A DNA stretch of 64,000 nucleotides from Candidatus Parvarchaeum sp. (GCA_049965555.1 JBMFWF010000002.1:21857-85856), one strand, 5' to 3'; shown: positions 7,159-59,742, numbered from the stretch's first letter. A program made the numbers and translations. The notes: generated by a model not told the origin, from the letters alone.

Positions 7159-7857
7159 TTGGTTGAAATGGAAATGATCTTTGTTGAATCTAGATTCAAG
7201 GGAAAGCTAAGCGAGGAATTTGTAAAAAGGATTTACGATGAAATAAAACCATATAAAAAGATAAACTTGGTAGCTGCAATACAGTTCATAGACCAAATGA
7301 ATGATTTTAAGGACAGGATAAAAGACAAGGAATTTGTAGTCAAGCAGTCTCTTTACAGAGCAATGTACCCCGGGCAGATTCTGGGCTGCGATGTTTATGC
7401 TGCCGACTGCAGTGACTGCGATGCAACTTTGGCATTTGAACAGGGCATGTTTCACGTTCTTGGAATACCGCTTAAATATGGGAAAACGGTAATAACTGCG
7501 GATCCTGAAACTGAGAATATAGAAGTAATAAATGCTGAAGTAGCTGATAAATACAGGAAAAGAATAATGCAGGGCATAGGCGCAGTATTGACTGCCAAAA
7601 AAGTCATGTTTGTAGAGTCTACAAAGGCAGGGCAGACATACGGCTCAAAACTTTTAAAGGAAAAGCTAAGAAAGGACGGCAAGCAGGTTTATTCTGTAGT
7701 TGCAGATGAAATAAACTTTGAGAGATTAAATGAATTCAGGGAAATAGACGTTTTCATAAGCACTGCCTGCCAAAGAATAGCCATAGATGACATGAACAAG
7801 GTCAAAAAACCAATGATAAATGCAGAGGACCTCGAAAGTTATCTTAAAGAGAAATGA
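7159..7857 (+). CDS. dph2: diphthamide synthase Dph2, C-terminal two-thirds (domains 2-3) encoded as a separate gene
   Basis: Colinear with Pyrococcus Dph2 from the IFVP... position. Conserved GQILGCD and STACQRIAIDD Cys motifs. Lacks domain 1, which is encoded at 49941-50261. Confidence 0.7.
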   Translation: MVEMEMIFVESRFKGKLSEEFVKRIYDEIKPYKKINLVAAIQFIDQMNDFKDRIKDKEFVVKQSLYRAMYPGQILGCDVYAADCSDCDATLAFEQGMFHVLGIPLKYGKTVITADPETENIEVINAEVADKYRKRIMQGIGAVLTAKKVMFVESTKAGQTYGSKLLKEKLRKDGKQVYSVVADEINFERLNEFREIDVFISTACQRIAIDDMNKVKKPMINAEDLESYLKEK

Positions 7858-30549: not shown

Positions 30550-31327
30550 ATTTTGCAAGGTCTGCCATCTTTGAATTGAACTCTACTCCTTTTATGATTA
30601 TTTCCTGGGCCTTTTCGCCGCTTATTTCTATTTTTTCGCCATGAAATAATTTTTTACCCAATGAGAATATCTCATTAAAATCACTGATCTGTTTCTTGTT
30701 AACTAATCCTCTTTCTTCTAGCTTCAAAAGCATTTCAGGGATTACCTCCGGTGATGGCGGTATGTCTCCCTGCCTCATTATTGCAGCCTGCGCGGAATTC
30801 ACAACAGCCCAGTACATATCTGTGACCACAGAAGCAAGTTTAAGCTTTGCCGAATTAGTGTAGAGCTCGCTTCTTGTCAAAGAAGCGTATATTGATTCTT
30901 CCGTAGGCTTTATTTCGCCCATGTTAAGCAGTGCCTGCAAAGGCTCGAAATAACCGGTATCTATCAAAGGGACGCCGTATTTTAGAACATTAACTGAAAC
31001 AGGATCTGCAGCTATTACTCCGCGCCAGAAAGCGGTCAATGTAACGAAGTTTATGTGTAATTTGGCTTGGCTTTCCTTTACAAGCTTGTCAACGTCTGAA
31101 AATATCAACGACTGAACGTTTTCATCTAGCTTATTCAAAACGTCGTCCATTACCACCATTATATCTACATCGCTGTCCTCTGTTTCTTTGCCTTTGCTAT
31201 AAGAACCAAATAGAACGATTGTTTTCATTACTTTCGGGTATTTTTCAAATATCCCCTTTGCGAATTTATAAGCCGCATCGTATCCTTTTAATTCCAAATG
31301 CCCTTTTTCATTGTTTTCTTCCATCAT
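30542..31327 (-). CDS. minimal nucleotidyltransferase fused to HEPN-like domain
   Basis: GSYSKGKETEDSDVDIMVV (GS...DxD pol-beta NTase) and a C-terminal helical HEPN-like region. Confidence 0.6.
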   Translation of the reverse strand: MMEENNEKGHLELKGYDAAYKFAKGIFEKYPKVMKTIVLFGSYSKGKETEDSDVDIMVVMDDVLNKLDENVQSLIFSDVDKLVKESQAKLHINFVTLTAFWRGVIAADPVSVNVLKYGVPLIDTGYFEPLQALLNMGEIKPTEESIYASLTRSELYTNSAKLKLASVVTDMYWAVVNSAQAAIMRQGDIPPSPEVIPEMLLKLEERGLVNKKQISDFNEIFSLGKKLFHGEKIEISGEKAQEIIIKGVEFNSKMADLAKSK

Positions 31328-33048
31328 ACCATCGGTGTCCCCGAAAAGCTTGAATTGCCTTTATTCTCCATGTAACCTCCGCCCGCTGCCGGGAATATCC
31401 CTGAAAAACCGCCATAGGGGAACATGTCCTGCTTCAATCCAAGATTAGAATAAGAGGAATAATCTCCTACTATAGAAGAATAAGGCTGGCCAAGATAAGA
31501 AGGCAAAGATACATAAGGAGTGTTACCATACAAAGGCGCACCCATATACTGAAGAGATTGAATAGTTCCGCTTTCAAGCCCACCTAACCCTCCAAAAACC
31601 TCCATTATAGCAGGAACATCAAGCCCCTTTTCCATCATTGCATCGTAAACCTCTTTTATTGGAGCATTTCCCTGCCCTAAAGGAAGGTGGCTATCCTTAT
31701 TTCCCATATTATCATTTAAATGATATCTTTTCAAATAATCTCCGGCAGCCTTTGCCATTTCAACTATGTCCTTATCGGAATATGGCTGCCCGGTCTTTGG
31801 ATTTATGTAGGATTTAAAAACGTTTATGTGCCCGATATCGAGATTTATGCCGATAAGATCGCTGCTTATCTTTTCTGCTTCTCTAAGAGATAAATGCTGT
31901 TTTTCATGCAGCTCTTTTGCAAATTCTTCCCTAGCTATACGTACTGCCTCTGCAGTGTCCTTAGGATCGCTTAATGACATCGTTGGTGACATAGGATTTT
32001 CAACAAGTATCATTGGCTTTGATTCTGTATTTTTGTAAGAAAACATTGCCGCTTTAACTATACCTTCTGCAGCAAGTTCAGGTGCTTTTTTATCATAAGG
32101 AATAAACCTATTGGAAAGGCTTTTTTCATCTATTTCAAGCTCTGTATACTTCTGATTTAAATTTTTAACCATATCCTGTATGTTTTCAAGTTCTTTCTTT
32201 GCTTTTTCAAATTCATTTTGATTGGACTTCGACTTAGCAGCGCTCATCTTGGCCAAAATATCTGCCTCTTGATATTCTAGGTTCCTTAAGCTTATATTAA
32301 GACTTGCTCTTTCTTGATTTATCTGTTGTAATATGCCTTTTTTCTGGAATTCAACTGACCCTTCTGGGCTAAGTATTACCTTGCCATCATCAGAAACGAA
32401 ACCAAGTTTTTTATCTTTATTTTCAAATATATTTTTGTAGAAATTTTCGCCGTACATCTCCCTAAATTTCTGCATTGCCAGTCTTTTCCTTTCTTCAGGA
32501 TTGCTTACAGTATTTTTGTCGATTCCCAAGTCGATCTCCTGTTTTGTCACTTGAATTACCTTTTCGTCCTTCTGATCATAAACGGAATAAACTATACTTT
32601 TATCTGGATCTGAAAATTGATCTGCAGAAGCATGGAATATCACAGGCATGTTTTGCCTGCCCATCTTCTTGCTTATATCATCGGCAAACTCCAAAGCAGT
32701 ACCTATCTCCCTTTCAACGGAATGTTCATATATTTCCGCTTTCTTTCCTGACTGCGGATCTATACCTGAAAAGTTTATTGCCCAAGGAGCATGAACGCTT
32801 AAATCAACGTCATTTGTTTTTGCAAGATTTGCTATCGCTTCTCTTTCTGTTTTACCAATAGTATCCGCTGCATTCCCTTGTTCTCCGCCAAGGCCATATA
32901 CGCTTGCTACATCTATTTCGACCATCCTTGCACCGCTTCTAAGAACTTTGGCAAACTCCTCTAACTGATTTCTCTCCCCTATAGAAACGCCAAATTGGAC
33001 CTTATTGAACGGGTCGTTGAACTTGCTGTTTAACATGTAGTCTGTCAT
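31324..33048 (-). CDS. xylose-isomerase-like TIM-barrel (sugar phosphate isomerase/epimerase-like) protein with inserted coiled coil and G/Y/S-rich C-terminal tail
   Basis: VHAPW and HLNDN TIM-barrel motifs split by a ~100-aa heptad-rich segment. Last ~100 aa are low-complexity GG/Y/S/P. Confidence 0.55.
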   Translation of the reverse strand: MTDYMLNSKFNDPFNKVQFGVSIGERNQLEEFAKVLRSGARMVEIDVASVYGLGGEQGNAADTIGKTEREAIANLAKTNDVDLSVHAPWAINFSGIDPQSGKKAEIYEHSVEREIGTALEFADDISKKMGRQNMPVIFHASADQFSDPDKSIVYSVYDQKDEKVIQVTKQEIDLGIDKNTVSNPEERKRLAMQKFREMYGENFYKNIFENKDKKLGFVSDDGKVILSPEGSVEFQKKGILQQINQERASLNISLRNLEYQEADILAKMSAAKSKSNQNEFEKAKKELENIQDMVKNLNQKYTELEIDEKSLSNRFIPYDKKAPELAAEGIVKAAMFSYKNTESKPMILVENPMSPTMSLSDPKDTAEAVRIAREEFAKELHEKQHLSLREAEKISSDLIGINLDIGHINVFKSYINPKTGQPYSDKDIVEMAKAAGDYLKRYHLNDNMGNKDSHLPLGQGNAPIKEVYDAMMEKGLDVPAIMEVFGGLGGLESGTIQSLQYMGAPLYGNTPYVSLPSYLGQPYSSIVGDYSSYSNLGLKQDMFPYGGFSGIFPAAGGGYMENKGNSSFSGTPMV

Positions 33049-42202: not shown

Positions 42203-44721
42203 AACTTAAGATCCCCCTTGTCGCTTGCTGACACATCAAGCCCGTCCTCTCCGTATTTAAACTGTACTATTGAACTACCTAATCTTACGGATAGATCATC
42301 TGCTACTTTAAGGTCGCTCAATGCTGATGACAGCCTTCTCTGCATGTAACCAGAGATAGGAGTACGTATAACATTGTCCATTAGCCCTTCCCTGCTACTT
42401 GCAGCGTGAAGGAAGTATTCGACAGGATTTAATCCTTTTCTGTAGTTTGAGACTATAAATCCACGCGCGATTAAGCCATTGTCTCCTTTTTTAAAGTGAG
42501 ATGTAAGTCTATCCGAGAATCCATTGCTGATCCTCACATCTCTAAGCATCTGCTGGCCAACAAGCCCAATGGTCGGTATAAGGTTAGTTATGCTTCCCTT
42601 TGCACCAGTTGTTATCATTGCTTCTACGTTGTTGTTCTTTTTGTCTATGTATGCATCTATTATGTTTCTTACCTTTATTCTTATTCTATTGGCTATGCTA
42701 AGTATCTTTGCTTCAGCTATATCATCATAATCCTTTAAAAGCTCTGCTACGCTATTTTCTCCCTCCTTAACTGCCTTTTCTATCTCAGTGTATGCTGCTT
42801 TTGGAATGTCAAAATCCCTTATGTTAACGCTCATACCCAGATTGAATATTGTCATAAGCCCAAGTTTGTTGGCCTGGTCTATGAATTTTGCTGTAACTTC
42901 AGAGCCGTACCTTACAAACAGGAACTGAAGCAAACTTCCGCTTTCCCTTCCAATTGTTGCCGCATCTATGACTCCTGAAATTAGTTTACCATTTTTAATC
43001 CTTACGATTGAATCGTCATCCTTGGTTATCTTGTATGTACTGCTTTGACTTTCGAAATTAAGGTCTTCTGGCAAAATCATGCTGAACAGTTCCCTTCCAG
43101 TGTATTTCTTTTTCTTTAAATCCATAACTATGCCTATGTTGGAAAGAAGAAACTCGGCGCTTTCTTTTTCAAATTCTGTATCTTTTGAAGTCAACAAAGC
43201 GCATCCTGAAACGTAATCCTGTGCAGCTCCGATTAATGGCAGACCATGCCTTGGAGAAACAATGTTGTTCTTTATGTTTATTATCATGTCAGCCTCTGCA
43301 AGTGCTTCTTCATTCTGCAGGACGTGTATGTTCATTTCATCTCCGTCGAAATCAGCATTATATGGAAGGGTAGAGGCTGGATTTATGCCTAAAGTTTTGT
43401 AAGGCAAAACTTTTACCCTGTGCCCCATTATTGAAAGCCTGTGTAATGAAGGCTGCCTATTGAAAAGGATTATGTCACCGTCTTTTATGTGTCTTTCTAC
43501 TATGTACCCTGGTTTAAGTTCATCTATAATGTTGTCAACTGTCATTTCGGTTATTTTTCTTTTAATATTGTCAGGGGTTATAATGTAATTCGCTCCTGGA
43601 TACGAATTAAAGTTTTTAATCGTGGCCTTTAACCTGTCAATGTTTAATTCTGTAACATATTCAGGGTATGTTACTTCCTTGGCTATTTTTATTGGAACTC
43701 CTACCTCATCAAATCTTAAAAAGGAATCTGGAGAGATAACTGACCTAGCGCTGTAATTCACACGTTTGGCAAGTGCTGACCCTCTAAACCTGCCTTCTTT
43801 TCCTTTTATCCTGTCCTCAAGGCTTTTCAGCTTCTTGTTGGATTTCTGCCTTGCAACAGGCACCTGTGCCGACCCATTTGATATGAAAGTTGTTATATGG
43901 TACTGAAGCAGATCCCAGAGTTCGTCTATTATTATTTCCGGTGCTCCTGACCTTATGTTCTCGGCGAGCCTCTGATTAGTCCTTACTATATCGGTAAGCT
44001 TATGTGTAAGATCATCTTCACTTCTCTGTCCATTCTCTAGTGTAATAGAAGGCCTTATGGTTATAGGAGGTACTGCGAGTATAGAAACCATCATCCATTC
44101 TGGCCTTGAATAATCAGGATCTAAACCAAAAAACTGCAAGTCAGAATCCTTTATCTTTTCAAGCCTGTTCAACACATCTATTGGAGTAAGTTTCTGGTCT
44201 CCGTCTATAAACGTATATGGTTTCTCAAGCTTCACTTTTCTCTGTTTAGTCTTACAGAACGGACACACTGTTACATTCTTTGCATGCTTTATTAGCGCTT
44301 TGATAAGCTTTATTTTCTTCTTTTGTCCTTCATTTATTTCTGCGGATATGATGTCTTCACTTAGCTTTTTTAGGTGCTCGTCTGATATTAGTATCCTGCC
44401 GCAAGAATTACATGTTGAATTTATAAGATTATAAACATAAGGAACAGTTTTTACATTGAATACTGGTCTGGCGAGTTCCAGGTGACCGAAGTGTCCCGGG
44501 CAGTCTCTTATTGTGTTCCCGCAGGTTTTACAAGTCAATCCCGGATCAATAACGCCCATTCTCAGATCAGAAAGTCCGCCGTCTACTGGAAAACCGTCAA
44601 TATCATAAAGTTCAGAGGAGGTTATAGCAACTGCGCTCATCTTTTGTATCATTTTAGGGGACATTATCCCAAATTCCAAGGCATCTATCTTACTAAAAAC
44701 AAAGTTCGAATCCAATTTCAT
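42199..44721 (-). CDS. rpoA1: RNA polymerase subunit A' (Rpo1N)
   Basis: Zinc motifs CKTCG...CPGHFGH, and catalytic NADFDGDEMN. Confidence 0.95.
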   Translation of the reverse strand: MKLDSNFVFSKIDALEFGIMSPKMIQKMSAVAITSSELYDIDGFPVDGGLSDLRMGVIDPGLTCKTCGNTIRDCPGHFGHLELARPVFNVKTVPYVYNLINSTCNSCGRILISDEHLKKLSEDIISAEINEGQKKKIKLIKALIKHAKNVTVCPFCKTKQRKVKLEKPYTFIDGDQKLTPIDVLNRLEKIKDSDLQFFGLDPDYSRPEWMMVSILAVPPITIRPSITLENGQRSEDDLTHKLTDIVRTNQRLAENIRSGAPEIIIDELWDLLQYHITTFISNGSAQVPVARQKSNKKLKSLEDRIKGKEGRFRGSALAKRVNYSARSVISPDSFLRFDEVGVPIKIAKEVTYPEYVTELNIDRLKATIKNFNSYPGANYIITPDNIKRKITEMTVDNIIDELKPGYIVERHIKDGDIILFNRQPSLHRLSIMGHRVKVLPYKTLGINPASTLPYNADFDGDEMNIHVLQNEEALAEADMIINIKNNIVSPRHGLPLIGAAQDYVSGCALLTSKDTEFEKESAEFLLSNIGIVMDLKKKKYTGRELFSMILPEDLNFESQSSTYKITKDDDSIVRIKNGKLISGVIDAATIGRESGSLLQFLFVRYGSEVTAKFIDQANKLGLMTIFNLGMSVNIRDFDIPKAAYTEIEKAVKEGENSVAELLKDYDDIAEAKILSIANRIRIKVRNIIDAYIDKKNNNVEAMITTGAKGSITNLIPTIGLVGQQMLRDVRISNGFSDRLTSHFKKGDNGLIARGFIVSNYRKGLNPVEYFLHAASSREGLMDNVIRTPISGYMQRRLSSALSDLKVADDLSVRLGSSIVQFKYGEDGLDVSASDKGDLKL

Positions 44722-46520
44722 ACTTTACTCCCCAAAACCATCTTTGGATATATTCCTACTGATTTTAACTCATCAAGAAGTATCTTGAACGAAACTGATA
44801 CTTCTATTAGCTTTATCTGTGCATCCTCCCCGTCTATAGGACAATATCCTGTCTTCTTTTTTACATTGTAAACTGCGACCATACCGCACTTTGAGCATAC
44901 CGGTATTGTAACTTTATCTGAATCGAACCTCTCCTTTAGTGCCAAAGCAGTTCCATATGCTACGAAGCAGTCCTTCTCCATCTCTCCTAACCTAAGTCCA
45001 CCGCGCTTTGACTTTCCTTCAGTAGGCTGCCTATTAAGCAATTGTATTGGACCCCTGGCCCTCCACTGTATTTTGTATTCGACTAAGTGCTTCAATCTTA
45101 TATAAGTCATATCTCCAACAAATATCCTTACTTTCATCTCTTCACCGGTTATACCGTTGTACATTGTCTCTACTCCATTCTCTCTAAACCCGTATTCCAT
45201 TAATTCTTTTCTTAGATCCTCTTCCGTTTCACCTGTGAATGGAGTTCCATCAATGTATCTGCCGCCAAGTGCTCCAACCTTTCCGCCTATTAATTCAAGT
45301 AAGTAAGACATCGACATCCTCGAAGGTATAGAGTAAGGAGAAAATATTAAATCAGGGATTATTCCTGAGTAAGTGAAAGGCATGTCTTCCTGATTTAGAA
45401 GCATCCCTACGACTCCTTTCTGTCCACTTCTTGGCCCAAATTTGTCTCCTATTTCAACGGGCCTATCCTCTCTTATTTTTAAAGATACATACTTATTTCC
45501 TTCTGCTGTCGACGTCACAAATACGTTGTCGACTACTCCGCTTTCCCCGGTTCTACATTCAATTGAAGACTCAACTTGCTTCTGTACACCTAATCTAAAC
45601 TTATCTATTGACGAAACGAACCTGGGAGGCGAAATCCTGCCTATAAGAACATCTCCGCCATTGACATGTGAATTTATTGCGGCAATCCCGTCTTCATCAA
45701 GGTATTTATATGAATCCTCTGATCTGTAACCTGCTACATCTTTATCTGGAACTGTTATAACATCACTTTGTCCCCCAACATACTTTATTTCCTCTACTTT
45801 GTAAGGCCTGAAAAACATCGCTCTGAAAAGCCCTCTTTCTACAGAAGACTTGTTTATTATTATTGCGTCGTCCATATTGTAACCAAGATAAGAAAGTACG
45901 GCAACGACTATATTCTGTCCTGAAAGATGGGACTTAAAGTTCTCATTCTCATACATCTCTGTCTTAACTATAGGCATCTGCTGATCAATCGCTATCATTG
46001 AGTCGTTATCGTGCCTTATAAGATAATTTGTAGTGTACAAACCTACGCCCTGCTGGACGCTTTTAACTGCAGTAACGTTTCTGTGTGCATTACTGTGATT
46101 TATAAAAGGAAGCAATGAAGCTTGGGTACCGAAAACAGAGAGAGGAGTTATCTCCAGGTGGGTATGAGCAGGAGTCAATTCCTCTTCATTTAACGCAGTA
46201 TATGCGAGCTCTTCTTCGTCTGCATCAAGGTATTCTATCTTTCCTTTATCAACTAAATCCTGCCATGTTATATGGCCCTCAGAAAGCAGTTCTACGTCTT
46301 CCTTCGTAACCATTGGCTTTCCATTTTTAACCACTATAAGCGCCCTGCGCAGCCTTCCACTGTCAGAATTTATCATTACGCTGTCAGTGTCTTTTCTGTA
46401 CCTTACATTTATCTCTTTTGGTATCTTGCTTTGCCTTCTGTCCTCTATTATTTCTTTAACAAGCTTGTCTGGATCATCAGTAACTCCTGAAAGCACACCA
46501 TTTACAAATACAAAACTCAT
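44718..46520 (-). CDS. rpoB1: RNA polymerase subunit B' (Rpo2C, C-terminal part of split B)
   Basis: Conserved B C-terminal regions and zinc motif CSKCG...CPIDG. Confidence 0.95.
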   Translation of the reverse strand: MSFVFVNGVLSGVTDDPDKLVKEIIEDRRQSKIPKEINVRYRKDTDSVMINSDSGRLRRALIVVKNGKPMVTKEDVELLSEGHITWQDLVDKGKIEYLDADEEELAYTALNEEELTPAHTHLEITPLSVFGTQASLLPFINHSNAHRNVTAVKSVQQGVGLYTTNYLIRHDNDSMIAIDQQMPIVKTEMYENENFKSHLSGQNIVVAVLSYLGYNMDDAIIINKSSVERGLFRAMFFRPYKVEEIKYVGGQSDVITVPDKDVAGYRSEDSYKYLDEDGIAAINSHVNGGDVLIGRISPPRFVSSIDKFRLGVQKQVESSIECRTGESGVVDNVFVTSTAEGNKYVSLKIREDRPVEIGDKFGPRSGQKGVVGMLLNQEDMPFTYSGIIPDLIFSPYSIPSRMSMSYLLELIGGKVGALGGRYIDGTPFTGETEEDLRKELMEYGFRENGVETMYNGITGEEMKVRIFVGDMTYIRLKHLVEYKIQWRARGPIQLLNRQPTEGKSKRGGLRLGEMEKDCFVAYGTALALKERFDSDKVTIPVCSKCGMVAVYNVKKKTGYCPIDGEDAQIKLIEVSVSFKILLDELKSVGIYPKMVLGSKV

Positions 46521-47995
46521 ATCTTTTTCACCCCGTAGTTCTTCAGCATATCTTTAACTGTTTCTGTGTCTATGCCCTCCTTTGACATCATGGATAAAAC
46601 AGCAAGATTCTTTGTGAGACCTATCTTTGGACCTTCTGGAGTTTCTACTGCACAGAATCTGCCGAACTGAGTCCCATGAAGGTCTCTTGCTCTATAATTC
46701 TCTCTATTCGAAGTAAGCAATGACTCTACCTTTCTTAAATGCGATATAGTTGATGGAAAGCTTCTTCTGTCCAGGTGCTGAGTTATACCGACTCTGCCGC
46801 CGACCCACTGGCCTGTTGCAAGCGCTGATCTTAATCTGGCAGTCAATTGATCAGAGGTAAATATGTATTTAGGGTCTGGTACTCTGTCTTTTCGTATCCC
46901 TCTTTCAAAATTATATTTAGCATCGTTTAGTATCTGCTTAAATATAAACCTGAAAAGCATGTCTAAGTTGTAGCTTTCAGCATGCAATCTTTTATTTGAG
47001 TAATGGTCTTTGTCAACCTCCTTTCCTTCTAATGCACTTTTTATCAAAAGGTTTGAAACATACATAAGGTACTCTGCCTTTATCTTTCTAGAGCTCTTAT
47101 CCCTTCCTAAAAATGGGAACAAGAGTGAGTCTATGTTCAACTCTGCAGTTTCTTTGGTATGAATCGAATGAAGCATTTTTCCTATAGTGTCTAGCGCATC
47201 ATTTTCTGATTCTATGTTAAAAGCAATAAGGTTCATGTCTACGGTGTTTATTATATCTTCATCGTCTTTTCCTATTTTTTTGATTATTTCATTTTCATTT
47301 GTAACTCCCAATGCTTTTATTAACGTAATGATTGGAACCCTTTTTAACTTACCAAAAGTTATATAGAGAAGATTACTACCAGAAATCTGAAGAGTATGCG
47401 GAACTTTTATTGCGTCTGCGTCTGCAAATATCTTTGCGCTAAATTTGAATCCCTCCTGGTTATCTTTAGAAATCAATATATTATTTGGAGCAAGGTCCTC
47501 TGTCGTTATTATTATCCTTTCAGTGCCGTTTATTATGAAATATCCCCCTGGGTCTGTCGGATCTTCTTTTGCTTCAGTCAATTCGCTTGCTGATAGCCCG
47601 TAAAGATTACAGTATTTCGATTTTACTACAATTGGCATACGGCCTATAAAAACTTCCTCATTTACAATTTCCCTGCCATCCGCTAGATATGAGACAGAAA
47701 GCATTAAAGGTGCATCATAAGTAAGGTCTCTGATCCTTGCTTCCATTGGATTAATCAATCTTACTATACTGTCTGCCTCTATTATGTCCGGCTTCCCAAT
47801 GGTTATCTTATTTATCTTTATCTTAAAATCTTCAACTCCTGCTGGCTTTATAACTGGCTCTATTAAACCCTCTGTTTCTATTATCTTGTTAAGGCCTTTC
47901 TCTATGAAATATTCAAATGAGGATATATGGTGTGCAGCTAAAGCAGTTGAACCTAACGCAGCTCTAAGCAATGCTTGATATGTATTTTTTTCCAT
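46517..47995 (-). CDS. rpoB2: RNA polymerase subunit B'' (Rpo2N, N-terminal part of split B)
   Basis: N-terminal B homology. 4-nt overlap with B'. Confidence 0.95.
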   Translation of the reverse strand: MEKNTYQALLRAALGSTALAAHHISSFEYFIEKGLNKIIETEGLIEPVIKPAGVEDFKIKINKITIGKPDIIEADSIVRLINPMEARIRDLTYDAPLMLSVSYLADGREIVNEEVFIGRMPIVVKSKYCNLYGLSASELTEAKEDPTDPGGYFIINGTERIIITTEDLAPNNILISKDNQEGFKFSAKIFADADAIKVPHTLQISGSNLLYITFGKLKRVPIITLIKALGVTNENEIIKKIGKDDEDIINTVDMNLIAFNIESENDALDTIGKMLHSIHTKETAELNIDSLLFPFLGRDKSSRKIKAEYLMYVSNLLIKSALEGKEVDKDHYSNKRLHAESYNLDMLFRFIFKQILNDAKYNFERGIRKDRVPDPKYIFTSDQLTARLRSALATGQWVGGRVGITQHLDRRSFPSTISHLRKVESLLTSNRENYRARDLHGTQFGRFCAVETPEGPKIGLTKNLAVLSMMSKEGIDTETVKDMLKNYGVKKI

Positions 47996-49940: not shown

Positions 49941-50261
49941 ATGAAATATCAAATAAAAAATGACGGCTTAAAGTATCTTACTGAGAAATATGACATTGAT
50001 TTTGACAGTATTATAGATAACATACGTGAAAAAAAATACGATAAAATAGCAATACAAATACCCGATGGCTTTAAATTGCATGCACTAGACATAGCAGACA
50101 TAATAAGCGAAAATTCAGGGGCAGAAGTATACATCTGGGGGGGAAGCGCCTATGGCGCATGCGACATCCCGATAGGCCTTGGAAAATTCGGAATAAAAGC
50201 AATTATACAATTTGGACATGCAAGATTCAGAGCTGATGAACTCAGAAGAAGCAGTGATTAA
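49941..50261 (+). CDS. dph2: diphthamide synthase Dph2, N-terminal domain 1 encoded as a separate gene
   Basis: KIAIQIPDGFKLHALDIADIISENSGAEVYIWGGSAYGACDI...IQFGHARF aligns to residues ~20-95 of Pyrococcus Dph2 (first conserved Cys in YGAC). Stop overlaps the rnhB start. Confidence 0.7.
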   Translation: MKYQIKNDGLKYLTEKYDIDFDSIIDNIREKKYDKIAIQIPDGFKLHALDIADIISENSGAEVYIWGGSAYGACDIPIGLGKFGIKAIIQFGHARFRADELRRSSD

Positions 50262-50918
50262 ATGATAACTATTGGTATAGATGAAGCCGGGAGAGGTCCT
50301 TTAATAGGCCCAATGATAATAGCCGGAATAGGCTTTAATGATGAAGTTGCCAAAAAATTCAAACTCATGGGTGTAAAGGACTCAAAGATGCTAAGCATTA
50401 AAAGGATATACCTTTTAGAAAGAGAGATAATTAAAACATCCAATAATTTTAAAGTGATTAAACTATCTGCCGAACAAATAGACAATAGATTTGCTGACGG
50501 AAAGAACTTAAATTATTTAGAACTTGATAACATGGCAGAAATAGCAAACTCGCTTGAAGGACAAACTGTCATAGTTGATTCCCCGAGCAGAAATACGACT
50601 AAAATAAGAGAGTATCTGATGAAAAAAATAAAGGATAAGAAGGTAATAGCAGAAAACTATGCAGACAAAAATCACGTTGAGGTGTCTGCTGCGTCTATAA
50701 TAGCGAAGGCAAATCGAGAGAGGGAAGTAGAAAAAATAAAAAAGGGGCTTGGTTATGATTTTGGAAGCGGCTATCCCTCAGATCCAAAGACAATGCAATT
50801 CATAAAGATTATAACCGAAAATGGCAGGATAACACAAGAGCCTTACAAAAGATTCATAAGGAAGACTTGGAGTACTGTCAAATACACAAATTTTAACACG
50901 CTAAACCTTTTTAGCTAA
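50262..50918 (+). CDS. rnhB: ribonuclease HII
   Basis: IGIDEAGRGPLIGPM motif and DSK motif. Confidence 0.9.
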   Translation: MITIGIDEAGRGPLIGPMIIAGIGFNDEVAKKFKLMGVKDSKMLSIKRIYLLEREIIKTSNNFKVIKLSAEQIDNRFADGKNLNYLELDNMAEIANSLEGQTVIVDSPSRNTTKIREYLMKKIKDKKVIAENYADKNHVEVSAASIIAKANREREVEKIKKGLGYDFGSGYPSDPKTMQFIKIITENGRITQEPYKRFIRKTWSTVKYTNFNTLNLFS

Positions 50919-53598: not shown

Positions 53599-55969
53599 GC
53601 TTGAAAACATCAGAAGTCATCAAAATACGGAGATATCATTTTCAGAGGGAATAAATGTAATAACTGGTAACACAGGCAGTGGCAAATCTTCAATATTAAT
53701 GTCAATAGAATATGCACTTTTTGGAAAGATAGGAGAAGGAAAAGAAGAAGGAAAAATGCTACTGAGAAGAAACTCTTCTGAGGGAGAAATCAGTATAACA
53801 ATAAAGAATGGCAGCGATGAATACGAGATAAGCAGAGGCTTAAAGAGGGTTAACGATTCCGTAAGAAACGACGATTCAAAAAACTATATAAACAAAAACA
53901 ATCGGCGTGTAGACCTCCAAAACAGGGCTTCTGACTTAAACTACTATGTAAACAAATTATTGAAGATTGAATCAGAAAACCCTCTTGAAACTTTTGAAAC
54001 TATAACATACATAAAACAAGATGAATTAAAAACACTGATATTTGAAACGGGCCAGTACAAACAAGAGTATATAGATGGTCTTTTGCAACTTAACAAGTAT
54101 CTAGATGTTTACGATAGCACAAAAGAGGTTATAAACAAAATAAAAAATGAGATAGAAATAGACAAAAAGGAACTAGAATTGAGCGTTGACCAAAATGAAA
54201 TAATAAAGGTAGAAAACAGGATAAATGAAAACCAAAACCGGATAAAGAGTCTAGAAGAAGAAGCAATAAACAACCAAATACTTCTAGATAACAAAAAGAT
54301 AGAAAAAACCCAGAAAGAAAGCGAACTGGAATTTGAAAGAGACAAGAAAATAAAATTTGAAAAAACTTTAACAGAAATAAAAATAAAGGAAAATGAAAAA
54401 TCCAAACTTGAACTTGAAAAAACGAGAATAGACGAGAAAATAAATGAAACCCGAAAAAACCTGAAGCAGATAGACAGATTAAAAAAAGATGAAATTGAGA
54501 AAATGATTAAAGATCTCGAAGAAAGCAAAAAAATACAGGATGAAAACGTTAAAAAACTGTATGAAAACTTCTTTCAAATAGAATATTCTTATAAAAAAGC
54601 ACAAGATGAGATTGATGAACTTAAAAAAGAAATAGAAAGCGAGAATAAAAATTTATATAAACTAAATCAAGAGCAAGAGGAATTTGAAAAGCAAATTAAA
54701 AACATAACTGAAATAGAAAACAAAGAAGAGCTTAATGGGAGAGTTCATGAATTAAACAACCTAATAAAAGACCTAGAAAAAGAATTGGCACAATCTATTG
54801 AATTAGGTATTTGCATTGTGTGCGGCAGTAAAATAAGTGATCAGACCCATATAAAAAAAGAATACTCAAGTAAGATAGACAGATACAAAAATGAGATAGA
54901 AAGATTAAAAGACATAGCAAGAAGCATAAAATATTCAAAAAGCGATCTTGAAAAAAATATCGGATTAAATAGAATGAAGATTGAAACTACAAGAAACAAC
55001 CTACTAAAACTTGAATCAAAACTGGAAGAGAATAAAAAAAGTGAAAAGGAAAAGGAATACTTGGATATAAAGGAAACTTACCAAAAAGAAAAACAAAAAC
55101 TAGAGAACATATCAATAGAACTTAATAAAGCAAGGGAAAGCCTTAAGCTATTACAAGAAGAAGAGAAAAAACTATTTGAAATTGAAAGCTATACAAACAG
55201 GATAGATGAAATAGATAAAGCAATAAACAATTATAAACAAGAGATAATACAATTGAATGCTAATTTATCCGAAATAAAATTCGATGATAAAAAATTAGAC
55301 GAAACTGAAAGTGAATTCAAGCTTATTTCTGAAGAATTAAACAAACTAAATTATAAGATTAGTGAGATAAAAAAGGAAGCGGAGCTAAGAAAAGCACAGT
55401 TTATAGCCGATAAAAATGAAAGAGAAGAACTGGAAAGAAAGGTCAAGAGAAAGGAAGAACTTTCAAAGATGCTCAGTAAAAAGGAAAGCCTCTTAAAAAC
55501 CATATCGAATTTAAGAGAAGATATTCGAGGGATAAGGGAATATGTCCGACTTCGTTTTATAAACGATTTCAGGTCTATTTTCAAAACGCGCTTTGAGGAA
55601 CTTAGAAATGAAGTGGATTACGACATAGACATAGACAACAATTATAATGTTATAATTGCTGCTGGAAACGAAAAGATGGATGCAAGGTCTTTATCAGGTG
55701 GAGAAAAAACTTCGGTAGCGATAGCATACAGACTAGCATTATCATCTCTGGCGTCTGTCCTTGGTGGCGTAGGAAAAAATGAGATTATAATAATGGATGA
55801 ACCGACATCTGGATTAGATAAAGAGGATATAAACGCGCTTACAAATGCAATAACTAAGATAACAGACTTAAAGCAAATAATAATAGTAACCCATGAAGAC
55901 AATATGAAAAACATTGCAGATAACGTGATAAAATTGAAAAAGGAATCGGGAGTGTCTTCTGTTTATTAA
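53558..55969 (+). CDS. rad50: DNA double-strand break repair ATPase Rad50
   Basis: Walker A GNTGSGKSS, long K/E coiled coil with CxxC zinc hook (CIVCG), signature LSGGEK, Walker B IIMDEP. Confidence 0.9.
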   Translation: MKIYFIHMIISKIKLENIRSHQNTEISFSEGINVITGNTGSGKSSILMSIEYALFGKIGEGKEEGKMLLRRNSSEGEISITIKNGSDEYEISRGLKRVNDSVRNDDSKNYINKNNRRVDLQNRASDLNYYVNKLLKIESENPLETFETITYIKQDELKTLIFETGQYKQEYIDGLLQLNKYLDVYDSTKEVINKIKNEIEIDKKELELSVDQNEIIKVENRINENQNRIKSLEEEAINNQILLDNKKIEKTQKESELEFERDKKIKFEKTLTEIKIKENEKSKLELEKTRIDEKINETRKNLKQIDRLKKDEIEKMIKDLEESKKIQDENVKKLYENFFQIEYSYKKAQDEIDELKKEIESENKNLYKLNQEQEEFEKQIKNITEIENKEELNGRVHELNNLIKDLEKELAQSIELGICIVCGSKISDQTHIKKEYSSKIDRYKNEIERLKDIARSIKYSKSDLEKNIGLNRMKIETTRNNLLKLESKLEENKKSEKEKEYLDIKETYQKEKQKLENISIELNKARESLKLLQEEEKKLFEIESYTNRIDEIDKAINNYKQEIIQLNANLSEIKFDDKKLDETESEFKLISEELNKLNYKISEIKKEAELRKAQFIADKNEREELERKVKRKEELSKMLSKKESLLKTISNLREDIRGIREYVRLRFINDFRSIFKTRFEELRNEVDYDIDIDNNYNVIIAAGNEKMDARSLSGGEKTSVAIAYRLALSSLASVLGGVGKNEIIIMDEPTSGLDKEDINALTNAITKITDLKQIIIVTHEDNMKNIADNVIKLKKESGVSSVY

Positions 55970-57582
55970 AATAAGGTATCATTAACTGAATCCACATTTG
56001 CTTTAGGAACTCTAGAATAATCGGTATTTGTTGTCATCCTACCTGAATTGCCCAAGAAGAGTTTTAAATCCTTCAGTATATGTGGGTACCGGTACTTTAA
56101 CTGGTCATACAAAGCAAATGCAATTTTCTTGTATTCTGGATGTGCTTCATCTGTACTTCTATTCTCTGCAATAAAAATAGCCTCTGCTAGGCTCATAGAC
56201 ATCTTTAAGTTTACTCTTGTTGCGAAAGGTACCAAAAGTTCAAGCTCGGAATTAAACCCTTTTTGATATAACTTATTAGAATAGTTATTTATTTCACCTA
56301 AAACTTCTTTTGAAGCATGCAAAGCTTCATTGTTTTTATACACCACTGCAGGGAGTATATAATCATTTAGGTGTATTACCAAATTTCTATTCGAAAGCCT
56401 ATGCCTCCACAAATCTCTTGCGGTGCCTAAAGAGCAGGTTATATCAACTTGAAGAAATGATGACCTTATAACGCTGTCATTAAGATCATCGAACTTACCT
56501 TTTCTGCTAGAAGATAAATTTTTAAGGTATTCTGTTACTACTTCTTTTTGCTTATCTTTATCATTATGGGGTAGCTGAGAGTATATTGATTTTAACAGCT
56601 GCTTCTCGCTTTGAGAACCGTCGGTTAAATTTACAATTACAGACTCCAATGAAGAGAGGCGCATTTCATTTGAAAGATTTGAATAATCAAAACTAACCCT
56701 CTCATTGTAAACCGCTTTATTAAACTCATCAGGAATCATATGCGTAGACAGAGAAGGAACATTATCCAAAACAGTAGAATAGAAGAGTTTGCCTGCCTGC
56801 TGGTTATAAGTATTTTTACTTGAGAGTAATTTTCTACCTATGTTCTCTGCTGTCCTAGCACTTAAAAGCATGACAAGAGAAGTCCTTGCTCCCAACGGCA
56901 AAAAACTTCTTATGGAATCACGTATAGTTGGAGTTATTATTGTCTTTATTTGCTCATCGTTCGGTGGATTACCGTTCGCTTTTATAAAATCCTGTTTGTA
57001 TAATTCCATTAAACTATCAAATAAAGAATTATATAAGCCAGACAATTCTTTATAGCCTTTTGATAAAAATCCCGCTGCTTCTTTATTTGTGCTTTCCGAA
57101 ATGTGAGTCTCATCAAACTTAACATAACGTGTAGACCTTTCCTGAGACGAAATGAACACTTCATCTTGTATAGTCAATGCAGTTATCTCAGGTACAACCA
57201 TTGACATCATAAAATTAGATTGTTCGCCTATGTTTCTATGCCCGAGTACAGATTGAATATTATAGAGAGTTTTTCTGATGGAGTCGTCAAGCGATGAATA
57301 AACCTTGTTGAAAAAATTGTTAACAGCAGCAGGGTCCGATAAATCAAGCTTTTCATCGAATATTCTAGAATACTTATTTGTAATCGAAGCAGACTTTGAA
57401 ACTAGCTTTTCAAGTAGGCTTTCTCCACTCTTTGTGCTCAATCGACTTGATAGTGAAAGATCCTCCAGGGCCAGCATCTCTGTTGTTGGGAAAGCCCTAT
57501 AAAAAAGTGCGCCCATCCCATCTAAATAATAAAAACGTATGAAACCATTATCGTTTCTTTTGATTTCTTGCATAAAAATCAA
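55966..57582 (-). CDS. ThyX-like (flavin-dependent thymidylate synthase-like) double-length protein, tentative
   Basis: C-terminal half resembles ThyX (RDLWRHRLS..., NLKMSMSLAEAIFIAENRSTDEAHPEYKKIAFALYDQL). N-terminal half has weaker ThyX-like similarity (SLVMLLSARTAENIGRKL). 538 aa, against ~250 for canonical ThyX. Confidence 0.4.
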   Translation of the reverse strand: MIFMQEIKRNDNGFIRFYYLDGMGALFYRAFPTTEMLALEDLSLSSRLSTKSGESLLEKLVSKSASITNKYSRIFDEKLDLSDPAAVNNFFNKVYSSLDDSIRKTLYNIQSVLGHRNIGEQSNFMMSMVVPEITALTIQDEVFISSQERSTRYVKFDETHISESTNKEAAGFLSKGYKELSGLYNSLFDSLMELYKQDFIKANGNPPNDEQIKTIITPTIRDSIRSFLPLGARTSLVMLLSARTAENIGRKLLSSKNTYNQQAGKLFYSTVLDNVPSLSTHMIPDEFNKAVYNERVSFDYSNLSNEMRLSSLESVIVNLTDGSQSEKQLLKSIYSQLPHNDKDKQKEVVTEYLKNLSSSRKGKFDDLNDSVIRSSFLQVDITCSLGTARDLWRHRLSNRNLVIHLNDYILPAVVYKNNEALHASKEVLGEINNYSNKLYQKGFNSELELLVPFATRVNLKMSMSLAEAIFIAENRSTDEAHPEYKKIAFALYDQLKYRYPHILKDLKLFLGNSGRMTTNTDYSRVPKANVDSVNDTLF

Positions 57583-57623: not shown

Positions 57624-57726
57624 TGCAGGGGAAGGGATTTGAACCCTTGAACTCACAAAGAGAGCAGATAGCTCAAACGCGCACTTCTTGAGTCTGCCGC
57701 GTTTGGCCAGGCTTCGCTACCCCTGC
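57624..57726 (-). tRNA. tRNA-Leu (anticodon CAA) with ~17-nt anticodon-loop intron
   Basis: Acceptor GCAGGGG/CCCCTGC, D arm GCG..CGC, anticodon stem GCAGA/TCTGC interrupted after loop CTCAAG by an insert (plus-strand nt ~57670-57686), long variable arm, T arm AAGGG-TTCAAAT-CCCTT. Confidence 0.75.
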
Positions 57727-59615: not shown

Positions 59616-59630
59616 ATAATTGCAGAGGGA

Positions 59631-59742
59631 GGGATTTGAACCCTCGAGGGCGCTAAGCCACAGGATATCTTATTCTTTGTAAACACAAAGACAGATAAGG
59701 ACCTTAAGTCCTGCACGTTGGGCCAAACTTCGCTACCTCTGC
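59631..59742 (-). tRNA. tRNA-Leu (anticodon TAA) with ~36-nt anticodon-loop intron
   Basis: Acceptor GCAGAGG/CCTCTGC, anticodon stem CAGGA/TCCTG interrupted after loop CTTAAG by an insert (plus nt ~59667-59702), long variable arm, T arm GAGGG-TTCAAAT-CCCTC. Confidence 0.7.

Follow-up and report, generated by a model that had tools for sequence, protein, structure and literature searches.

An archaeal Dph2 encoded as two complementary genes 42 kb apart

Canonical and split Dph2 in archaea

Dph2, the 2-(3-amino-3-carboxypropyl)histidine synthase, catalyzes the first step in the formation of diphthamide on EF-2, and each of its domains has a four-stranded sheet. The canonical archaeal enzyme is one chain of about 310–340 aa, and the homodimers that we used for comparison are those from P. 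horikoshii (3LZD), Ca. Methanoperedens (6BXM/6BXN) and M. smithii (6Q2D). The established ligands of the [4Fe-4S] cluster in PhDph2 are C59, C163 and C287, one per domain (PMC11048331). The SAM-pocket residues of CmnDph2 are G158, H180, Q237, V265, R285, D289 and D290 (PMC10669111). Eukaryotic Dph1-Dph2 performs the same reaction and, like the enzyme predicted here, combines two distinct polypeptides (PMC10669111, PMC11048331). In the eukaryotic heterodimer both subunits are full-length paralogues with all three domains each, whereas the two polypeptides of the present study are parts of one protomer.

Split forms of the archaeal enzyme have been described before. Podar 2013 found DPH2 to be split in the Yellowstone nanoarchaeote Nst1, where it is represented by the genes Nst 222 and Nst 440 (PMC3655853). 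A split Dph1/2 in "several DPANN" is reported by Narrowe 2018 (Genome Biol Evol), which also warns against Dph2 as a completeness marker (PMC6143161). The review by Dombrowski 2019 lists the split for Parvarchaeota, Pacearchaeota, Woesearchaeota and Altiarchaeota (PMC6349945).

We analyzed a stretch of 64 kb of archaeal DNA, called the window in the following, in which an initial annotation had seen one Dph2 divided over two ORFs. This is the same phenomenon as the split Dph1/2 of DPANN, with the N- and C-terminal parts in separate genes. Both genes of the window have their own start and stop, and Parvarchaeota are among the lineages named for the split. Compared to Narrowe 2018, nothing essential differs. 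Nst1 likewise has a reduced DPANN genome, in which the two gene numbers of DPH2 are not adjacent, and it belongs to a lineage different from that of the window. The view of the initial annotation that a naturally fragmented Dph2 is unusual is the weak point of its reading, as the split was already published for DPANN including Parvarchaeota (PMC3655853, PMC6143161, PMC6349945). Our finding is therefore a correct rediscovery and adds little as a discovery. Added here are the exact break point, the separate synteny of the halves, measures of selection, the complementation of the equivalog score, an intermediate with adjacent genes and an extra pair of Cys residues.

The nearest homologues of both halves belonged to Candidatus Parvarchaeota, Parvarchaeum acidiphilum ARMAN-4, ARMAN-5 and MAGs named 'Nanoarchaeota archaeon'. 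Since the top matches were 90–97% identical, the window can be assigned to a close relative of ARMAN-4. Judged from the sequence, the source is a small acid-mine archaeon of the Parvarchaeota/ARMAN-4/5 group, a DPANN lineage with a reported split. The G+C content of the window is 35%, and these 64 kb are the part of the genome that was covered. The search for the diphthamide-loop motif of EF-2 did not reveal EF-2 in the 64-kb window, and the Pfam scan of ten ORFs of the window did not reveal EF-2, dph5 or dph6.

The list of split proteins in Podar 2013 also contains reverse gyrase, alanyl-tRNA synthetase and RNA polymerase subunit B, the last of which is flagged as split in other archaea too (PMC3655853). 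These are different proteins, but the split genes of Nanoarchaeota likewise have essential functions in information processing, occur in tiny DPANN genomes and have dispersed halves. In the window, RNA polymerase subunit B is encoded on the minus strand (44718-47995) by two neighbouring genes that overlap and have products of 492 aa and 600 aa; their domain content was taken from orthologues in relatives.

Some further features of the window were recorded. The regions 57624-57726 (103 nt) and 59621-59742 (122 nt), both on the minus strand, matched Rfam tRNA models with 44.7 and 46.5 bits, respectively. ARAGORN did not detect tRNAs at 57624-57726 and 59621-59742, and the two are presumably intron-containing archaeal tRNAs. 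The ORF at 55966-57582 on the minus strand encodes 538 aa and contains two stretches that match PF02511, the family of the flavin-dependent thymidylate synthase ThyX. This is about twice the usual length of ThyX, and the ORF may represent a tandem-duplicated or fused ThyX. For an ORF of 574 aa (31324-33048, minus strand) the Pfam match was confined to residues 369-500 (AP_endonuc_2 / xylose-isomerase-like TIM barrel), and about 370 residues at the N-terminus had no assignment.

Complementarity of the two gene products

The gene for the N-terminal piece of Dph2, dph2-N, is located at 49941..50261 on the plus strand and encodes 106 aa from an ATG start. The product matched PF01866 with E=1.3e-11 and 45 bits (cut-off 33.2) over profile positions 2-58 of 302, and the TIGR00322 domain model with E=2e-20 and 73.4 bits (cut-off 35). 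It was aligned with residues 3-85 of 6bxm_A, the Dph2 of Ca. Methanoperedens. The codon for C74 in the motif YGACD is found at 50160..50162 on the plus strand, and this residue is equivalent to Cys59 of PhDph2, the first [4Fe-4S] ligand.

The gene for the C-terminal piece, dph2-C, lies at a distance of 42,083 bp from dph2-N, at 7159..7857 and also on the plus strand. When translation from TTG 7159 is assumed, the product has 232 aa. The start is probably ATG 7168 instead, giving 229 aa, because the proteins of relatives begin with MEM/MEV-IF. The match to PF01866 had E=8.2e-38 and 131 bits (cut-off 33.2) and extended over profile positions 63-293 of 302; the score for the TIGR00322 domain model was 124.4 bits (cut-off 35), and residues 93-314 of 6bxm_A were aligned. 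This piece has the codon for C77 in GQILGCD (7387..7389, plus strand), equivalent to Cys163 of PhDph2, and the codon for C204 in TACQRIAIDD (7768..7770, plus strand), equivalent to Cys287.

Since the halves covered the profile and the structure without overlap, we concluded that the pieces are complementary, and the assignment of the two ORFs to Dph2 that had been made from sequence alone was confirmed. The motifs YGAC, LGCD and TACQRIAIDD were also found as quoted, and they align with C59, C163 and C287 of PhDph2.

We fused the two products in silico to a protein of 338 aa. The fusion was aligned with 6bxm in one stretch, residues 12-337 against 3-314, with E=1e-38, and uninterrupted alignments were obtained with 6bxm, 6q2d and 3lzc (E=1e-38 to 3e-28). 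The fused halves were 25–31% identical to the canonical chains and had the same three Cys ligands and SAM-pocket residues. The Dph2 equivalog TIGR03682 has a cut-off of 202.8 bits, which was exceeded by the fusion (222.5 bits) and not reached by the N-half alone (53.7) or the C-half alone (161.6). When counted on the structure alignment, C74 of the N-half and C77 and C204 of the C-half fall on C59, C163 and C287 of PhDph2.

To compare single positions, we aligned the fused window sequence with 22 unsplit Dph2 proteins and rank-paired fusions of relatives (41 sequences, alignment A2); in a further alignment (A3), only the short tails of the N-halves were misplaced. Invariant in A2 were the three ligand Cys residues, Q39/P41/G43, G92/H93, G182, Q265 and R312, while D316/D317 were conserved at >=90%. 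Six of the seven SAM-pocket residues of CmnDph2, all except V265, correspond to G182, H205, Q265, R312, D316 and D317 of the fusion. All six are located in the C-half, and in A2 they are invariant or conserved at >=90%.

AF2 modelling of the artificial fusion, not of a complex, resulted in pLDDT 90.1 and pTM 0.86 with an MSA of 69 rows; the single-sequence run reached pLDDT 37.6 and was unusable. All 15 significant matches of the AF2 fusion model in a Foldseek search of the PDB were Dph2 structures (TM 0.71-0.84), and the next hit had E=0.015. According to this model, the fused halves take the predicted three-domain fold of Dph2. The window does differ from other archaeal Dph2 in chain number: instead of a single polypeptide of about 310–340 aa, it encodes one of 106 aa and one of about 229–232 aa.

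The C-half has an extra pair of Cys residues, C84/C87 in the motif DCSDC (7408..7419, plus strand), 7 and 10 residues past the ligand C77. The pattern C-x6-C-x2-C was present in 52 of 54 C-halves from Parvarchaeota. In 33 diverse full-length, unsplit Dph2 proteins, the corresponding stretch had two Cys residues in two cases and one Cys in seven. C84 and C87 could serve as additional ligands of a metal or cluster, or form a redox pair. In a two-piece enzyme, this CxxC, which is specific for Parvarchaeota and located next to the second ligand, might compensate for the split by providing a fourth ligand or a stabilising site.

Conservation of the halves and assembly of a predicted enzyme

The two genes have different surroundings. 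The gene for RNase HII (50262..50918, plus strand; PF01351, E=3.4e-41) abuts dph2-N, and the junction sequence shows the TAA stop of dph2-N followed directly by the ATG of the RNase HII gene. This pair is kept in relatives at 83%, 73% and 57% identity, and in those at 83% and 73% the gene for endonuclease III is found upstream of the N-half. Among the loci compared (L001, L005 and L006), the more distant relatives have an overlap of 20-38 nt between the two genes, which abut in the window. It is probable that dph2-N is co-transcribed with the functionally unrelated RNase HII gene. Upstream of dph2-C, an AT-rich spacer of 76 bp separates it from the divergently oriented S6e gene. The C-half is found beside S6e/eIF2-gamma in relatives at 85% and 70% identity and has another context at 53%. 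The separate synteny of each half recurs in independent assemblies from ENA, NCBI, JGI and Logan.

The search for homologues of the N-half resulted in 32 clusters with proteins of 90–117 aa and 54–90% identity, which were from Parvarchaeota wherever the source is named. For the C-half about 55 clusters were found, with 226–242 aa and 51–95% identity; unsplit proteins appeared in this search only at <=40% identity and from other lineages, e.g., Micrarchaeaceae. No Parvarchaeota Dph2 of about 330 aa was among the homologue matches. The initial annotation had proposed to look for the same split in related genomes, and the architecture is indeed kept in about 30 (N-half) and 55 (C-half) Parvarchaeota clusters. 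In a scan with one genome per species, five MAGs had both halves on different contigs, the C-half was recovered from ARMAN-4 and ARMAN-5, and no locus spanning both halves was found in the related genomes scanned. The tblastn search of the 64-kb window with three unsplit Dph2 proteins yielded nothing similar to Dph2 beyond the two known pieces, and remnants of the missing part were not present beside either half. Thus, a full-length dph2 that would turn the two ORFs into decayed paralogues was seen neither within the window nor in related genomes.

Differences between orthologues were mostly synonymous. For the N-half, pN was 0.094 and pS 0.844 in the comparison to the L001 orthologue, and for the C-half the values were 0.080 and 0.773 (comparison to L011); the closest pairs had pN 0.08-0.10 and pS 0.77-0.84. 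These values are given instead of corrected dN/dS because synonymous sites were saturated in nearly all pairs. As far as orthologous sequences tell, both halves are under purifying selection, and the split is fixed and not a recent disruption. The complementarity of the pieces, their conservation and the own synteny of each half support the division of one Dph2 between two genes about 42 kb apart.

We consider it highly probable that this is a true, evolutionarily fixed fission of archaeal Dph2, the halves of which most likely rejoin non-covalently to the predicted enzyme. Fission of the dph2 gene would have led to two separately transcribed genes and two polypeptides. The N-half would supply the larger part of domain 1, with C74 as one of the [4Fe-4S] ligands, and the C-half would supply the ligands C77 and C204 together with the mapped SAM-contacting residues. 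Most likely the halves associate non-covalently into one three-domain Dph2 protomer, and the three-Cys cluster site would be complete only with both halves together. The rebuilt protomer would then dimerise as in ordinary archaeal Dph2. Since both halves together would make up a single protomer, a complex of the form (N+C)2 is expected, in contrast to a dimer of two full-length paralogous subunits. We infer assembly, cluster binding and activity, as well as an interface by strand complementation. In the searched literature, we found no biochemical test of a two-piece Dph2 that addressed mutual binding, the cluster or EF-2 modification.

Several observations would also fit with a divergence of functions, in which the C-half would work as the enzyme on its own and the N-half would have another role or act only as a regulator. 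Every mapped SAM-pocket residue is in the C-half, the Parvarchaeota C-halves have gained the conserved Cys pair by ligand C77, and the positions of the genes, one before RNase HII and the other by S6e/eIF2-gamma, do not indicate co-regulation. The N-half nevertheless retains the invariant ligand Cys and the Q-x-P-x-G and GH motifs, is under strong purifying selection, and was present in every related MAG in which the search recovered both halves. This pattern of conservation is what is expected from a continued role in the same active site, and we regard diverged functions as improbable.

It is very unlikely that the ORFs are remnants of a decaying dph2, with diphthamide synthesis being lost or performed by an unsplit copy elsewhere. 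It is true that the genome is known here from the 64-kb window, and that some archaea have lost all dph genes, as stated by Narrowe 2018 (PMC6143161). Against decay, both ORFs are intact in dozens of clusters at 51–95% identity, pN is about ten-fold lower than pS and the three ligand Cys residues are invariant, and neither remnants beside the halves nor an unsplit copy in the Parvarchaeota hits or related MAGs came to light.

The position of the break was determined by comparison to unsplit proteins. The chain is cut just past the strand with the motif IIQFGHA and ahead of the strand MIFVE, and the break is in a loop between two beta-strands. At this point, unsplit Dph2 has a connector of a few residues, whereas the split forms are longer by about 8–19 residues, to which the N-half contributes its variable C-terminal tail and the C-half its first residues. 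In the AF2 fusion model, confidence was low only at this junction (residues 96-110). Besides the extra CxxC after the second ligand, these junction residues distinguish the window Dph2 from the canonical chain.

The position bears on the composition of domain 1. Three beta-strands of domain 1 are predicted for the N-half and four each for domains 2 and 3, and the C-half begins with a predicted strand (residues 111-115). Because the N-half shows three strands and the other domains four, we suspect that the C-half strand MIFVE completes the sheet of domain 1. This first strand would probably form an interface between the halves. The C-half had been described as beginning exactly where domain 1 ends. 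This is approximately right, but "exactly" goes too far, as the predicted secondary structure suggests that domain 1 may take its fourth strand from the beginning of the C-half.

The junction was also considered with regard to covalent joining after expression, by a split intein or by RNA trans-splicing, which would result in a single chain. There is a precedent in related tiny archaea, as the split DNA polymerase of Nanoarchaeum equitans is known to be ligated by a split intein. Compared to unsplit Dph2, the window proteins have about 10 extra residues at the C-terminus of the N-half and about 3-5 at the N-terminus of the C-half. Relatives differ in both the length and the sequence of these tails, and PF01866 was the sole Pfam family matching either ORF. 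Split-intein ligation is unlikely because the tails are far too short and variable, and for covalent joining as a whole we see very little chance.

Occurrence and origin of the break point

With the N-half as query, a HMMER scan of 1.84 billion representative proteins resulted in 556 hits at E<=0.001, the best 150 of which were examined. These 150 comprised 68 proteins of <=135 aa, 39 full-length proteins and 27 long repetitive proteins. Most of the 68 short proteins start with Met and end 3-15 residues past FGH[AST], which corresponds to the same break point; their identity to the window N-half was 27–55%, mostly 34–49%. Among the best 150 of the 556 hits, the first 25 non-repetitive ones were all short N-halves and preceded any full-length Dph2, and short hits ranked above full-length hits (Mann-Whitney p=2e-5). 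The distant stand-alone C-half P0093 (30% identity) starts with MKKIFLE at the same point. The split site of Dph2 is thus common to many divergent lineages. Micrarchaeota, the other ARMAN group, have an unsplit Dph2 of about 310 aa.

The 27 long repetitive proteins were rejected as relatives of Dph2. They match 'WGxxxYGxCDIP' only, in many repeats, and we regard them as spurious hits to RCC1-like repeats. Residues 61-88 of the N-half (about 50121-50204), 'AEVYIWGGSAYGACDIP', are similar to the repeat unit 'WGNNDYGACDIP' of long repetitive proteins. Spurious matches of the WGxxxYGxCDIP type call for caution in the automated annotation of short Dph2 N-halves.

For four distant N-halves (L039-L042) the genomic context was compared. 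In L039 (GCA_964397665.1, CAYNJW010000006.1, 3001-4012), an N-half of 89 aa and a C-half of 246 aa are encoded by adjacent genes. The sequence at this junction is ...W TAA, one nucleotide, ATG E I L F I..., and the division of the protein is at the position known from the window. No C-half was found near the N-half in L040-L042. The fission probably arose in place, with a later dispersal of the halves, and the adjacent pair in L039 would represent the in-place stage. Taken alone, L039, with halves in different frames and a 1-nt spacer, could pass for a frameshift error, but an assembly, frameshift or chimera artefact that broke a contiguous dph2 is hardly conceivable for the window. There, 42 kb separate the two genes, both of which have a start, a stop and an intergenic region upstream of their own, and their conserved neighbours differ and recur in assemblies from four sources. 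Even L039 has a clean TAA and then ATG at the junction used elsewhere.

A fixed fission remains our preferred reading for the Dph2 of the window. A single ancient fission in a large DPANN clade excluding Micrarchaeota, usable as a phylogenetic character and with the CxxC of Parvarchaeota as a compensating feature, would fit, because the break point is common, short N-halves rank first and L039 has an adjacent pair. We put this forward tentatively and rate it as rather doubtful. If it is true, the split could serve as a rare genomic character in work on the phylogeny of DPANN, which is disputed.

The split also has consequences for work on genomes and on the enzyme. Dph2 (arCOG04112) is a single-copy marker for the completeness of archaeal genomes, and a split copy is scored as missing, fragmented or duplicated. 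As small proteins, the split halves are a natural system for studying how the cluster site of Dph2 is assembled. The split suggests that a non-canonical radical-SAM active site to which each domain contributes one Cys can be distributed over two polypeptides.
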